Positions 8,750 to 9,475 of a stretch of 64,000 bases of DNA are shown here, in pieces. Every line of letters begins with the position of its first letter. The first letter of the stretch is position 1. Location of the stretch: positions 14-64,013 of the forward strand of contig JBPOIL010000001.1 of assembly GCA_052034495.1 (NCBI GenBank), given 5' to 3'. The DNA comes from Patescibacteria group bacterium. GTDB lineage: Bacteria; Patescibacteriota; Saccharimonadia; CAILAD01; JADZBC01. Below the pieces are notes generated by a model, which did not search any database, had not been told where the DNA came from, and worked only from the letters and a program-made list of their open reading frames with translations. The translations under genes were made by a program, and so were the position numbers.

Positions 8750-8778
8750 ATTGACTGGGCTAGCTTTTTGTTGTAAAG
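8750..8778 (+). promoter_or_regulatory. sigma70-like promoter TTGACT-17-TAAAGT
   Basis: TTGACTgggctagctttttgttgTAAAGT, upstream of the GC-rich small-ORF operon. Confidence 0.4.
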
Positions 8779-8825
8779 TCTTGTCAACCCAAAATCTGGG
8801 TAGTTCAATGGAGGGAGTACCCACA

Positions 8826-9005
8826 ATGCTCGAAGGAGCCGGAAGAGAAGAGCTCGGCGAAGACTTCTGGGGGCCCAGCGAGCCGCCCGGCATGATGGAG
8901 ACGCTCAGCAAAGGCTGCGCAGAAGACAGCATGCTCACCCTTGTGTTCATGGCAATCATGTTCACGATCGGCTGGAACCTGCGTCGCACGAAGAAGGTGC
9001 GGTGA
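8826..9005 (+). CDS. small membrane protein (59 aa), hypothetical
   Basis: ATG with GGAGGGAG RBS 10 nt upstream. One TM helix (MLTLVFMAIMFTIGW). ~63% GC. Confidence 0.4.
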   Translation: MLEGAGREELGEDFWGPSEPPGMMETLSKGCAEDSMLTLVFMAIMFTIGWNLRRTKKVR

Positions 9006-9340
9006 TGGCACGCGAAACCGTCCTTGTCACCGCCATCAGTGAGCTGCTCGATGACGTTCACAACGGCCTGCCACCGACGGTCGCCATGCCCCGGCTCGAG
9101 GAGTTGCTCGCAGACCACGAGGCCGAAACATCGCGGCTGAGAGCTGCCCTGGAAGAGATCGATAATCTCGACCCAGACGACTTCAAGATCGGCCAAAGGC
9201 ATCTTGGGGTGGCCTTCAGGGAAGTTGACTTCGCATGCGTGGTTCGTAAGATCACGCAGATCGTGAACCGCACCCTGCATGGCACCGACGAACACGGCCA
9301 GCCTCTTGCCGAGGAAGGGTCGACCGATGTTCCGTCCTGA
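9002..9340 (+). CDS. hypothetical protein (112 aa)
   Basis: TGATG stop/start overlap with the upstream ORF. Acidic protein in the GC-rich island. The 233-aa minus-strand ORF over the same region looks like an antisense artefact. Confidence 0.4.
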   Translation: MMARETVLVTAISELLDDVHNGLPPTVAMPRLEELLADHEAETSRLRAALEEIDNLDPDDFKIGQRHLGVAFREVDFACVVRKITQIVNRTLHGTDEHGQPLAEEGSTDVPS

Positions 9341-9452
9341 GGCCTTCGCCCACACCATCATGATCATGCGGCTCTGTGCCCTCGGTGCAGCTTTCGTGGT
9401 CATGATCCAAATCCCGCTCCTCGTGAGCAACTTCACCGTCGCCCGGCGCTAG
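9327..9452 (+). CDS. tiny hydrophobic ORF (41 aa), doubtful
   Basis: RBS GGAAGGG. Product MFRPEAFAHTIMIMRLCALGAAFVVMIQIPLLVSNFTVARR. Its stop codon lies inside the terminator hairpin. Confidence 0.2.
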   Translation: MFRPEAFAHTIMIMRLCALGAAFVVMIQIPLLVSNFTVARR

Positions 9453-9475
9453 CCGGGCGACGGTTCGCCTTTTAC
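9438..9475 (+). terminator. rho-independent terminator GTCGCCCGGC-gcta-GCCGGGCGAC + T-run
   Basis: Perfect 10-bp GC stem. Confidence 0.55.

Follow-up and report, generated by a model that had tools for sequence, protein, structure and literature searches.

A three-gene cassette between femB and tsaD of Saccharibacteria, a putative domesticated membrane module with phage-derived cargo

Between femB and tsaD of a Saccharibacterium lies a GC-rich region that is open on both strands, with three small overlapping reading frames on the plus strand and one large frame on the minus strand, which raises the questions of which strand encodes protein, where these genes came from and what they do. The region was studied within a window of 64,000 nucleotides (the whole stretch of DNA that was analysed); its neighbours are femA, femB, tsaD and valS. 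The GC island described in an earlier note on this DNA is real: the cassette has a GC content of 0.590 versus a window mean of 0.495, equally GC-rich 726-nt windows make up 3.6%, and GC3 is 0.72-0.83 in the cassette versus 0.55-0.62 in femB, tsaD and valS. The cassette occupies positions 8826-9452 of the plus strand and has the following features:

8742..8751, plus strand: 5' copy of the direct repeat TATAAGCCAT, 10 nt, exact (direct repeat D4)
8751..8779, plus strand: candidate sigma-70-type promoter TTGACT-17-TAAAGT, from the promoter scan
8788..8800, plus strand: leader element CCCAAAATCTGGG, a palindrome or hairpin of 4-5 bp, invariant across cassettes
8810..8817, plus strand: putative Shine-Dalgarno (SD) site of ORF1, GGAGGGAG, 8 nt 5' of the ATG, read from the sequence
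8826..9005, plus strand: ORF1, 59 aa, ATG at 8826, TGA at 9003-9005
9005..9340, plus strand: ORF2, 111 aa, ATG at 9005 inside TGATG, stop at 9338-9340
9327..9452, plus strand: ORF3, 41 aa, ATG at 9327 (14 nt inside ORF2), TAG at 9450-9452
9435..9464, plus strand: 13-bp GC-rich hairpin ACCGTCGCCCGGC / GCCGGGCGACGGT with loop GCTA (inverted repeat I3)
9462..9473, plus strand: invariant GGTTCGCCTTTT, which overlaps the 3' arm of the hairpin and runs past it
8735..9436, minus strand: antisense open frame of 233 aa, from the ORF list, an apparent artefact

We consider it probable, if by no means certain, that this is a plus-strand operon of three genes which arose as a clade-specific insertion, carries in ORF2 a cargo from a phage-linked family and now serves as a domesticated membrane module. 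The parts of this reading differ in strength and are taken in turn.

The choice of strand is decided by comparison with relatives. The minus-strand frame is open only in the window and broken in every relative; in four of them the longest minus frames have 79-134 aa. A collection of 15 billion proteins lacks the 233-aa product, while the 59-aa and 111-aa plus-strand products are called there exactly as read (the exact 41-aa product of ORF3 is absent from this collection), and searches with the minus-strand product returned no family hits. In a tblastn search against one relative (L002), the plus frame (ORF2) scored 106 bits and the minus frame 58 bits. In frame-specific substitution analysis, ORF2 has a dN/dS of 0.12-0.25 when read in its own frame. 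Of the five other frames over this region, four have pN/pS ratios above 1, and the mirror frame -1 has 0.51, in keeping with the third positions that it shares with the ORF2 frame. For ORF3, the ratio is 0.58 in its own frame, 0.64 in the mirror frame and 1.18-1.54 in the four others; for the long forms of ORF1 it is 0.57, the lowest of the six frames. The frame-specific check that the earlier note had suggested thus finds ORF2, ORF3 and long-form ORF1 each lowest in the proposed frame, and the suspicion that the minus-strand frame is an artefact of high GC content is borne out. On the comparison with relatives, the three small genes of the plus strand are genuine and make up a single compact operon.

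The window comes from a MAG of Saccharibacteria (TM7). The best relatives of its tsaD are all from Saccharibacteria or Patescibacteria MAGs, and the same cassette stands at the femB-tsaD junction in eight related lineages, seven besides the window (cassette-bearing: L002, L081-87, L090-92, L210 and L211). More distant lineages have no cassette. The gap between femB and tsaD is 787 nt in the window versus 55-66 nt in L005 and L007, and L003 and L004 have a different gene in it. Directly 5' of its ATG, tsaD has a -10-like element, as it does in cassette-free genomes. From this distribution, the cassette is an insertion specific to one group of Saccharibacteria, placed between the promoters of femB and tsaD, which are divergent and apparently leaderless. 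There is no integrase or other phage gene near the cassette in the window, and no phage gene adjoins it in any of the eight lineages. The repeat TATAAGCCAT has a second copy at 9493-9502 that contains the tsaD ATG, so that the two copies bracket the cassette. It was considered as a target-site duplication and rejected: it is exact in the window only, its 5' copy is degenerate in relatives, and by our estimate about 0.5 such repeats per 1 kb are expected by chance. At most it may be a faint fossil of the insertion site.

Across these lineages the cassette has a constant frame, made up of promoter, leader element, ORF1, ORF3 and hairpin, and a variable middle of one or more genes for soluble proteins: ORF2, members of a 95-aa family, both, or a middle without ORF2. 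The stop/start overlaps (TGATG or ATGA), predicted promoter, SD sites and hairpin are conserved between lineages. The gene orders of four variants are:

L081: ORF1-ORF2-95a-95b-ORF3
L090: ORF1-92aa-ORF2-ORF3
L210: ORF1-42aa-95a-ORF3, without ORF2
L211: ORF1-102aa-ORF3, without ORF2

The 95-aa proteins have no usable match in Pfam, PHROGs, NCBIfam or PADLOC. Compared with L081, the window has diverged at synonymous sites by 0.62 in ORF2, 0.33 in ORF1 and 0.20 in ORF3, which is consistent with a mosaic history of cargo and frame.

The signals at the 5' end belong to the constant part. The predicted promoter TTGACT-17-TAAAGT of the earlier note matches at 9 of 12 positions in the promoter scan, and its hexamers lie at conserved positions (-35 TTGAC, -10 TA..(A/C)T) in six lineages as well as in L210. 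The ribosome binding site described for ORF1 has purine-rich counterparts at the same place in all lineages. The predicted leader has about 40 nt and opens with the invariant element CCCAAARTCTGGG, which starts about 9 nt past the -10 hexamer, where the mRNA is predicted to begin or close to that point. This element is exact in all 11 cassette-bearing loci compared, with one other match among 98 loci, and is also present in L210; it is unchanged although synonymous sites of the adjacent genes have diverged by 20-80%. The base pair that flanks it covaries (A-U in the window, G-C in L085), but its predicted fold is weak and indistinguishable from that of shuffled sequences, so that a stable leader hairpin was dropped. 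A regulon defined by the motif was dropped as well: the 64-kb window has one exact copy, and near matches are at chance level. A search of IMG/VR returned 111 matches, which were discarded since none of these loci encodes a cassette protein and the count is as expected by chance for 15 specified bases. There was no Rfam match at E ≤ 1 that would indicate an RNA gene or riboswitch, and a similarity of 19 nt of the leader to the 5' coding part of femB (D1, 74%) was treated as chance.

The cargo of the window's cassette is ORF2. It encodes an acidic (pI 4.6; 22 D+E versus 10 K+R), soluble cytosolic protein that is predicted to be all-helical. The earlier note had read it as an acidic protein of 112 aa coupled to ORF1 by TGATG; the acidity and the overlap stand, but the length is 111 aa from the conserved ATG, the count of 112 being that from an upstream GTG at 9002 which is unconserved in relatives. 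Conservation is concentrated in residues 38-105 (LDPxDFKxGQxHLxPAFRE ... IVNxxLHGTDExGxPL). An hmmsearch with a profile of five sequences found 64 cluster representatives at E ≤ 1e-3, 29 of them at ≤ 1e-10 and two at ≤ 1e-30, and E-values of the ORF2 profile against relatives range from 1e-50 to 1e-10. The trimmed alignment of the family shows these motifs in a core of about 65 residues. On the strength of these profile matches, ORF2 is a full member of an unannotated family of at least 64 clusters. Its members share the C-terminal core and vary in their N-terminal parts; some have CxxC motifs, and one is fused to a domain typical of phages. Neither the curated sets Pfam, NCBIfam, PHROGs and PADLOC, nor a sequence profile search of the PDB, nor Foldseek against BFVD and PDB gave a usable match.

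What links this family to phages is the company that its genes keep. Its member P0016 is encoded on a Nocardioidaceae contig of 70% GC together with the small and large terminase subunits, a Mom-like protein, DNA methylases and an HNH endonuclease, and a neighbour of P0016 matches 170 phage records, mainly from phages of Gordonia, Arthrobacter and Mycobacterium. P0079 occurs with ParB and RusA, P0085 with an HNH endonuclease. Of two metagenome scans for the family, the first gave nothing and the second one phage-like contig (L098), which has WhiB and RNase H beside the ORF2 homologue. The other members examined likewise lie in arrays of early or DNA-metabolism genes of actinobacterial phages, in genomes of about 70% GC, whereas the Saccharibacteria copies are chromosomal, have about 60% GC and are framed by the two peptides. 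The PHROG hits among the family were set aside as a phage link, as all come from the fused N-terminal domain of P0025. A tblastn search with ORF2, P0016 and P0018 in 50,697 deposited phage genomes found no relative, and scans of IMG/VR gave no hit, either for the ORF2 alignment or for the 95-aa protein; the evidence for a phage link therefore comes from contigs of metagenomes and MAGs that bear phage hallmark genes. These contigs indicate phage ancestry for ORF2. The phage homologues have no counterparts of ORF1 or ORF3 alongside, and no relatives of ORF1, ORF3 or the 95-aa family were found outside the cassette. CRISPR spacers of Actinobacteria target some predicted phages of Saccharibacteria (PMC10746230).

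In a neighbour-joining tree, a distance tree without support values, the Saccharibacteria ORF2 copies are monophyletic with P0016 as sister. They form one branch within the family; this and the high GC3 of the cassette point to ORF2 having been acquired once from a phage-type source and inherited vertically thereafter. The identities of ORF2 and of tsaD to the window rank the lineages similarly, with L081 nearest and L090 and L002 farthest; L087 breaks this ranking, and its tsaD match spans only 76 residues.

The two peptides that frame the cargo raise the question of whether they act as proteins or serve the expression of what lies between and behind them. In the second case, which we regard as unlikely but as carrying some weight, ORF2 would be the only functional protein: ORF1 would be a leader that loads ribosomes onto the cargo, ORF3 a trailer that tunes termination and read-through into the essential tsaD in an attenuation-like arrangement, and the ends would be conserved as signals and as recombination arms. 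That the cargo changes while the ends stay constant is what such devices would look like.

ORF1 gives evidence in both directions. It is called as a gene in the source assembly, and the earlier note's 59-aa frame with a single transmembrane (TM) segment was found where it had been placed, with its product called as read. The protein has an acidic N-terminal part, one hydrophobic segment (SMLTLVFMAIMFTIG; Kyte-Doolittle maximum of 2.09) and the basic C-terminal tail NLRRTKKVR, an architecture that marks it as a membrane peptide of the single-pass type. Its frame is open in eight lineages, with ATG and SD and ending on the ORF2 start, despite indels of 4-28 codons. Pooled over long forms, short forms and L002, ORF1 has a ratio of 0.88-0.98 and no codon-level signal; the window copy is the most divergent (pN/pS of 1.0 against L081), and the N-terminal half appears dispensable, being gone from the 31-aa forms of L085 and L087. 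The conserved KKV codons at its end coincide with the SD site of ORF2, AAGAAGGTG, which the last ORF1 codons carry. All this would suit a leader. Against a mere leader stands that the hydrophobic single-pass character and the basic tail (N[LF]RRxKxx[RHK]) are kept throughout the eight lineages despite turnover of the sequence, and that the long forms share the N-terminal motifs MxEGxGxEEL and RGCA along with their low ratio in the own frame. ORF1 has no family match in Pfam, PHROGs, NCBIfam or PADLOC; a lipoprotein signal at the RGCA motif was rejected by inspection, as there is no hydrophobic h-region and Arg occupies position -2.

ORF3, put forward earlier as a possible hydrophobic frame of 41 aa, gains from the comparison: homologues of 41 or 59 aa occupy the same place in eight lineages, several of them found by gene callers, and its substitution ratio in its own frame is the lowest. 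The product is hydrophobic, basic (pI 11.5) and predicted to be single-pass, with the tail ARR. The gene has its own SD site, GAGGAAGGG, and an SD precedes its ATG even where the upstream gene is a different one (L081, L211). Its shared motif MxxP[ED]..H[TF].[MV]IM..C..GA, seen as HTxMIMRLCALGA, would be needless in a pure spacer ORF, as would its constraint. The way ORF3 ends would fit a trailer: in the window its stop codon covers the hairpin loop and the first base of the 3' arm, whereas in L002, L090 and L210 the frame continues across the hairpin to a stop codon 3 nt short of the tsaD ATG.

The hairpin itself consists of perfect 13-nt repeats (9435-9447 and 9452-9464) separated by a loop of 4 nt; the predicted dG is -32.2 kcal/mol (z = -5.35), and none of 200 shuffled sequences was as stable. 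RNAalifold on six lineages gave 11 pairs, three of them kept through changes on both sides, and in the lineages with a 41-aa ORF3 the 3' arm is non-coding and has retained its complementarity. The earlier note had seen a perfect terminator hairpin here; the perfect repeats are there and, at 13 bp, are larger than it had stated, but a canonical U-tract is missing. The U-tract that follows, UCGCCUUUU, is weak and distal, and the hairpin is absent from the list of the terminator scan on account of this distal U-run. The element GGTTCGCCTTTT probably represents the hairpin's U-tract region; it is invariant in five of six aligned lineages (TTTA in L081) and occurs in L210 and L211 too. A terminator is plausible; more broadly, this 3' structure may be called terminator-like or attenuator-like. 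A smaller, alternative hairpin (GGCGA-CGGT-TCGCC) with TTTT directly after it could form in overlap with the 3' arm, as attenuation would have it, but at about -7 to -10 kcal/mol it is no better than shuffled sequence and was rejected as an alternative terminator. That tsaD retains its own -10-like element before the ATG also speaks against control of tsaD by a trailer.

On the reading that we favour, ORF1 and ORF3 would be working membrane peptides, and our best guess is that the cassette is a domesticated accessory module of phage derivation that acts at the membrane. The tight translational coupling would deliver the three products together, and the acidic ORF2 protein would probably dock at the membrane on the basic cytoplasmic tails of ORF1 and ORF3, as we infer from their charges. 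The module would be kept for a benefit to the cell, as a domesticated phage accessory function of the moron type; its likeliest roles would be to exclude phages or defend against them at the envelope, or to interfere with a conserved target in Actinobacteria or in phages. The hairpin would limit read-through into tsaD; where ORF3 has 59 aa, its translation would run across the hairpin to within 3 nt of the tsaD ATG, so that some coupling to tsaD expression is possible.

With their 31-59 aa, a single TM segment and a charged C-terminus, the peptides also resemble type I toxins and holins in general terms, and three tightly coupled genes, one of them of phage ancestry, could form a toxin-antidote or abortive-infection module, in which one or both peptides depolarise or permeabilise the membrane and the acidic protein neutralises them until phage infection or stress. 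We judge this to be rather improbable. The peptides are constant and their soluble partner is exchanged, or ORF2 is absent altogether (L210, L211), which is the opposite of the co-variation of toxin and antidote. The cassette occurs once, at a fixed place in the chromosome, at odds with the patchy distribution that is typical of such modules; it has no promoter-like site on the minus strand between 8750 and 9475 from which an antisense RNA could be made, no PADLOC hits and no endolysin gene nearby.

Very improbable in our estimate, and the farthest-reaching of the readings, is a miniature module by which an epibiont would deliver or deploy proteins, with the peptides as holin-like passage or membrane platform and the exchangeable soluble proteins as effectors without signal peptides, ORF2 having been captured from a phage of the actinobacterial host. 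If it were true, the Saccharibacterium would be reusing a weapon of its host's phage to manipulate the host or to shield it from phage; ORF2 would have been captured since it already targeted a conserved host protein, and the swapping of cargo would reflect an arms race. That the minus-strand ORF (8735-9436) is the true gene and the plus-strand ORFs are incidental has in its favour that it is the longest open frame over the region in the window, but the comparisons given above speak so clearly for the plus strand that we consider it refuted.

Saccharibacteria are ultra-small epibionts with reduced genomes, and genes kept under selection in such genomes likely matter for their lifestyle. To our knowledge, all cultured Saccharibacteria live on Actinobacteria, their only known hosts. 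On the favoured reading of a domesticated phage-derived module, the cassette would be a tangible example of genes passing between the epibiont and the virome of its host phylum. Newly defined here are an unannotated, phage-linked family (at least 64 clusters, 65-residue core), a 13-nt leader element and a frame of two peptides around a cargo. If the module affects phage resistance or host interaction, it would give short and tractable access to the biology of epibiont, host and phage; otherwise it would be a further example of a domesticated accessory cassette.

Several known systems resemble the cassette in part. The operons of class IIb bacteriocins likewise pack a pair of small hydrophobic peptides together with a protein of about 100 aa into one compact unit, but ORF2 is soluble and acidic and not a membrane immunity protein. 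A double-glycine leader was looked for and rejected: no GG is conserved (WGP, LGI, WES, WDG or WGG occur at the aligned position), and the 31-aa ORF1 has no leader. No ABC exporter with a C39 peptidase lies beside the cassette; the closest ABC transporter, at a distance of 9 kb, lacks a peptidase domain.

ORF1 and ORF3 resemble type I toxins (Hok, TisB, Fst) and class III holins in size, in having one hydrophobic helix and in the charge of their C-terminal tails. ORF1 (TM and NLRRTKKVR) and ORF3 (TM and ARR) each combine at least one TM with a charged C-terminus as holins do, a loose criterion. Unlike these systems, the cassette has no candidate antisense RNA, with neither a minus-strand promoter-like site at 8750-9475 nor an Rfam match at E ≤ 1 at the sequence level, and no endolysin; no peptidoglycan hydrolase gene is found in or beside it, the neighbouring FemAB proteins being peptidyl transferases and not hydrolases. 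It is also fixed, single-copy and has an exchangeable partner without co-variation.

Also similar in make-up are the proteins of superinfection exclusion and prophage defence, such as Imm and Sp of T4, SieA and SieB of P22 and the pairs of membrane and cytosolic genes of mycobacteriophage prophages. Here too, small single-pass membrane proteins stand beside small soluble ones of phage origin and are retained under selection; the cassette differs in having neither similarity to them in sequence or fold nor a prophage context.

Morons are accessory genes with their own promoter and terminator between unrelated genes of lambdoid and other prophages. The cassette departs from them in being chromosomal, between the housekeeping genes femB and tsaD and not in a prophage, in being fixed and vertically inherited at one site through a whole clade, and in its constant frame of two peptides around an exchangeable cargo, which is no described property of morons. 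It shares with them the self-contained layout of predicted promoter, small genes and terminal hairpin between genes that are adjacent in relatives, the deviant base composition, at least one gene (ORF2) of apparent phage ancestry and a gene content that varies among close relatives.

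The small plus-strand ORFs, the promoter, the Shine-Dalgarno (SD) site, the GC island and the 233-aa minus-strand frame that the earlier note had described between femB and tsaD are all present. The three plus-strand ORFs with their promoter, leader element and hairpin are called the cassette here.

Features of the cassette in the window (coordinates, strand, feature)
8751-8756 and 8774-8779, plus strand: promoter, TTGACT and TAAAGT separated by 17 nt (window sequence and promoter scan)
8788-8800, plus strand: leader element CCCAAAATCTGGG, 13 nt
8810-8817, plus strand: SD site GGAGGGAG, before the ORF1 ATG
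8826-9005, plus strand: ORF1, ATG at 8826, TGA at 9003-9005, 59 aa
9005-9340, plus strand: ORF2, ATG at 9005 (within TGATG), TGA at 9338-9340, 111 aa
9327-9452, plus strand: ORF3, ATG at 9327, TAG at 9450-9452, 41 aa
9435-9447 and 9452-9464, plus strand: hairpin arms, perfect 13-bp inverted repeat with a 4-nt loop
9462-9473, plus strand: invariant run GGTTCGCCTTTT
8735-9436, minus strand: open frame of 233 aa

ORF2 is coupled to ORF1 by TGATG as described, but its length is 111 aa; the 112 aa stated previously are reached only from an upstream GTG at 9002, which is not conserved among relatives. The proposed terminator hairpin is perfect and longer than described (13 bp), but its U-tract is weak and distal, which is why the terminator scan did not list it; its predicted energy is -32.2 kcal/mol (z-score -5.35) and none of 200 shuffled sequences folds as well. 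The GC content of 8750-9475 is 59.0% versus a window average of 49.5%, a value reached by only 3.6% of windows of the same length, and GC3 of the three ORFs is 72-83% versus 55-62% in femB, tsaD and valS. In ORF1 a single hydrophobic segment is combined with a basic tail, NLRRTKKVR; ORF3 is both basic and hydrophobic, and ORF2 is acidic (pI 4.6; 22 D+E versus 10 K+R).

In a scan of GTDB species representatives, the best relatives of tsaD were all from Candidatus Saccharibacteria or Patescibacteria MAGs, and the organism is therefore a TM7/CPR bacterium. L002, a locus with a tsaD 88% identical to that of the window, has an ORF2 homologue between femB and tsaD, and further lineages were added by homology searches and contig look-ups. 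The cassette is at exactly the same place in eight lineages, flanked by the divergent femB and by tsaD wherever the contig is long enough. Some lineages carry genes of a second family, here called 95-aa proteins (95a, 95b):

Gene order of the cassette by lineage (L numbers are loci from other genomes or contigs)
Window: ORF1, ORF2, ORF3 (41 aa)
L081-84: ORF1, ORF2, 95a, 95b, ORF3
L085/86 and L087: ORF1 of 31 aa, then ORF2, ORF3
L002: ORF1, ORF2, ORF3 (59 aa)
L090-92: ORF1, 92-aa homologue of 95a, ORF2, ORF3 (59 aa)
L210: ORF1, 42-aa transmembrane peptide, 95a, ORF3 (59 aa), without ORF2
L211: ORF1, 102-aa protein of the 95a family, ORF3 (41 aa), without ORF2

All gene junctions are stop/start overlaps (TGATG or ATGA) or overlaps of 8-14 nt behind an SD site. 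Around the variable middle, the frame is constant: neither the TTGAC of the -35 hexamer nor the -10 hexamer shifts position, GGTTCGCCTTTT is retained, and the leader element, starting about 9 nt downstream of the -10 hexamer and single-copy in the window, is exact in all cassette loci. The pair flanking the leader element covaries (A-U in the window, G-C in L085), its loop sequence is conserved too and its predicted fold is weak: it may be either a short 5'-terminal mRNA stem-loop or an operator. ORF1 keeps a hydrophobic segment and the tail N[LF]RRxKxx[RHK], ORF3 the motif MxxP[ED]..H[TF].[MV]IM..C..GA. RNAalifold predicts 11 pairs in the hairpin, three of them preserved via changes on both sides, and complementarity is kept even where the 3' arm is non-coding, in lineages with a 41-aa ORF3. 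The hairpin probably limits read-through into tsaD, which retains its own -10-like box 7 nt before the ATG, as in cassette-free genomes. Some transcriptional or translational coupling to tsaD is possible, because the ORF3 frame of L002, L090 and L210 spans the hairpin and ends only 3 nt short of the tsaD start codon.

femB (8711-8726, minus strand, TACAAT-AAGGCCT-ATG) and tsaD (9488-9503, plus strand, TATTAT-ATAAGCC-ATG) both lack an SD site, and in each a -10-like box ends 7 nt upstream of the start codon. The layout is similar in the cassette-free L005 (5930-6010) and L007 (4140-4235), with 6-9 nt from box to ATG. This points to a pair of divergent promoters inside a stretch of about 60 nt, both giving leaderless mRNAs.

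The femB-tsaD spacing is only 55-66 nt in the more distant Saccharibacteria L005 and L007, and L003 and L004 have other genes at this position; this makes the cassette a clade-specific insertion. tsaD identities to the window of 95, 92, 89 and 88% go with ORF2 identities of 75, 65, 52 and 52%: both proteins rank the lineages much alike, with L081 nearest and L090 and L002 farthest; L087 is out of line, its tsaD match spanning only 76 residues. Because of this similar ranking, the data fit one acquisition followed by vertical descent, the neighbouring genes having changed far more slowly than the cassette. The genes of the window differ in their synonymous divergence from L081 (ORF2 0.62, ORF1 0.33, ORF3 0.20), and the ORF2 and 95-aa genes are present or absent by lineage; together, these observations suggest exchange of the middle part through recombination between the conserved ends.

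In the next-closest Saccharibacteria, L003 (4243-5532) and L004 (3622-4970), an opposite-strand gene of about 277 aa lies between femB and tsaD, together with GC-rich stretches that may include tRNA genes; gene content at this junction has therefore changed repeatedly. An exact 10-nt direct repeat, TATAAGCCAT, flanks the cassette in the window (8742-8751 and 9493-9502); the second copy includes the tsaD start codon, and the repeat is degenerate in relatives and compatible with chance.

ORF1, ORF2, ORF3 and the 95-aa family have no match in Pfam, PHROGs, NCBIfam or PADLOC. Only five close relatives of ORF2 came out of a word-indexed search, every one in this cassette; a HMMER scan of 1.84 billion cluster representatives with a profile of these five found 64 proteins at E <= 1e-3, 29 of them at E <= 1e-10. 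The family shares a core of about 65 residues (..R.AL.EID.LDP.DFK.GQ.HL.PAFRE(V)(D/N)F..AF..V..IVN..LH.TDE.G.PL) behind very variable N-terminal parts, some with CxxC motifs, and one member is fused to a domain matching nine PHROG families of unassigned function. The distant member P0016 is encoded on a contig of 70% GC binned with a Nocardioidaceae MAG. Its gene is part of a series of small genes arranged head to tail, along with two for DNA methyltransferases; a Mom-like modification protein is encoded two genes downstream and the small and large terminase subunits a few kb farther. A near-identical second contig (L089) also has an HNH endonuclease, and a gene neighbouring P0016 matches 170 deposited phage genomes, chiefly of Gordonia, Arthrobacter and Mycobacterium. 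Other distant members are accompanied by ParB-like and RusA genes (P0079), an HNH endonuclease (P0085) or WhiB and an RNase H-like gene (L098). In a distance tree of the core, built without support values, the six Saccharibacteria sequences group together with P0016 as sister. Judged by these contexts and the tree, ORF2 is a member of an unannotated actinobacterial phage gene family. The family has no match in the deposited phage collection or IMG/VR and is therefore so far visible only in metagenomic contigs and MAGs; the phage homologues have no ORF1-like or ORF3-like neighbours in the contexts examined. Searches found no relatives of ORF1, ORF3 or the 95-aa family outside the cassette, and the literature searched holds no description of the cassette or the ORF2 family. 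Published work has dealt with gene flow linking Saccharibacteria to their actinobacterial hosts and to phages shared between them, and CRISPR spacers of Actinobacteria target some predicted Saccharibacteria phages (PMC10746230).

The orphan 95-aa family (92-102 aa, motif L.A.Q.CC[VI][IL][DG]AL) occurs in one or two tandem paralogous copies (L081 2314-2882, L090 4677-4955, L210 3358-3773, L211 157-465) and comprises only five clusters in 5.8 billion.

Frame-specific conservation (dN/dS across homologs), the check proposed in the earlier note, favours the plus frames. In Nei-Gojobori counts on codon alignments, dN/dS of ORF2 is 0.12-0.25 wherever dS is unsaturated, and its mean pN/pS rises from 0.38 in the proposed frame to 0.51 in the mirror frame, which has third positions in common with the proposed one, and to 1.1-1.5 in four others. 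The lowest pN/pS among frames is that of the proposed frame also for ORF3 (0.58) and for the long form of ORF1 (0.57, five lineages); when the short forms and the distant L002 are included, ORF1 gives no codon-level signal (0.88-0.98). ORF2 can be regarded as certain to code for protein, ORF3 as very likely and ORF1 as likely.

One rival reading leaves the cargo as the sole functional part and makes ORF1 a leader and ORF3 a trailer ORF, serving ribosome loading and attenuation. It would be favoured by the weak constraint seen in ORF1, by the SD site of ORF2, embedded in the last ORF1 codons, and by the stop codon of ORF3, located within the 4-nt hairpin loop in the window. However, ORF1 and ORF3 both retain membrane character and specific motifs, and pN/pS is below 0.6 for ORF3 and long-form ORF1: we consider this explanation unlikely. 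A toxin-antidote or abortive-infection module would match the size and shape of the peptides and is still less probable, as the soluble partner is exchangeable and in some lineages missing, the locus is fixed and single-copy, no antisense promoter was found and PADLOC gave no matches. That the minus-strand ORF is the real gene can practically be dismissed: the longest minus frame across the cassette is 79-134 aa in four relatives versus 237 aa stop-to-stop in the window, tblastn against L002 gives 28% identity and 58 bits for the minus frame versus 52% and 106 bits for the plus frame, and an exact-sequence look-up in about 15 billion predicted proteins finds the 59-aa and 111-aa products (called in the NCBI source assembly, on a contig of 258 kb) but not the 233-aa product, which with the codon-level selection on the plus frames makes it the artefact that the earlier note had suspected.

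Several further segments of the window are unusual. Immediately 3' of the femA stop codon, a non-coding segment of about 385 nt (6294-6676) is 81% identical, in inverted orientation, to L090 1976-2358 (L090-92), where it also abuts the femA stop; a 65-nt piece recurs in L081 (3134-3197), within an extra 300 nt or so between cassette hairpin and tsaD in L081 and L083. The window has only one copy of the segment, Rfam gave no match to it at E <= 1, and it is not flanked by inverted repeats >= 12 nt; it could be an RNA gene not yet recognised, or else a small element capable of moving or inverting. The stretch 4920-6290 (about 1.4 kb, about 60% GC) has patches 80-92% identical to L090 1010-1653, no convincing ORF and no Rfam family at gathering threshold, and could be conserved non-coding RNA or decayed genes. 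GC-rich islands at 1-700 and 19800-20400 (about 63% versus a mean of 49.5%) contain the first two entries of the list below and may be further foreign insertions.

Orphan ORFs without Pfam match
84-905, plus strand: 273 aa
19959-20630, minus strand: 223 aa, overlapped by 20019-20570 on the plus strand
10557-11141, minus strand: 194 aa, between tsaD and valS, overlapping the annotated valS 5' extension

Conservation of the 194-aa ORF is weak and partial (L002 and L090, 52-56% over 63-68 aa); by these alignments it is another fast-evolving orphan beside the cassette.

Comparison of the loci shows a predicted single transcription unit with conserved signals and apparently obligatory translational coupling, two conserved, predicted single-pass peptides flanking exchangeable soluble genes, purifying selection on ORF2, and fixation at one chromosomal site. 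The three products would be made together, the basic cytoplasmic tails of ORF1 and ORF3 would anchor the strongly acidic ORF2 to the membrane, and the unit would be kept by the cell for some benefit. Taken whole, we hold this structural and evolutionary account to be somewhat more probable than its negation, and we rate the unit as a putative domesticated phage-type accessory cassette. By analogy with other phage-derived accessory genes in bacterial chromosomes, the benefit ranked highest would be keeping phage out, or defending the cell against it, at the envelope, a proposal that is doubtful at best; alternatively, the phage family would have evolved to hit a conserved target, and the cassette might interfere with it. 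It is very unlikely that the peptides are a holin-like platform deploying exchangeable effectors without signal peptides; if so, effectors captured from the host's phages would be used against or for the actinobacterial host. Nothing here upsets current understanding. As a lead the cassette is clean and sharply bounded, and it brings with it a newly defined protein family and an uncommon arrangement of constant frame and variable cargo.

Superinfection-exclusion pairs, type I toxins, holins and two-peptide bacteriocin operons resemble the cassette only in peptide size and hydrophobicity; at the sequence level, the antisense RNA of type I toxins, the endolysin that goes with holins and the double-glycine leader and C39 exporter of bacteriocin operons were not found. 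Among known systems the cassette is most like a phage moron: it differs in lacking prophage residence, a defining feature of morons, and in its constant peptide frame, with which morons have not been described, but like a moron it is a stand-alone unit, with a predicted promoter and a putative terminator around its genes, whose composition is foreign and which lies between two genes.
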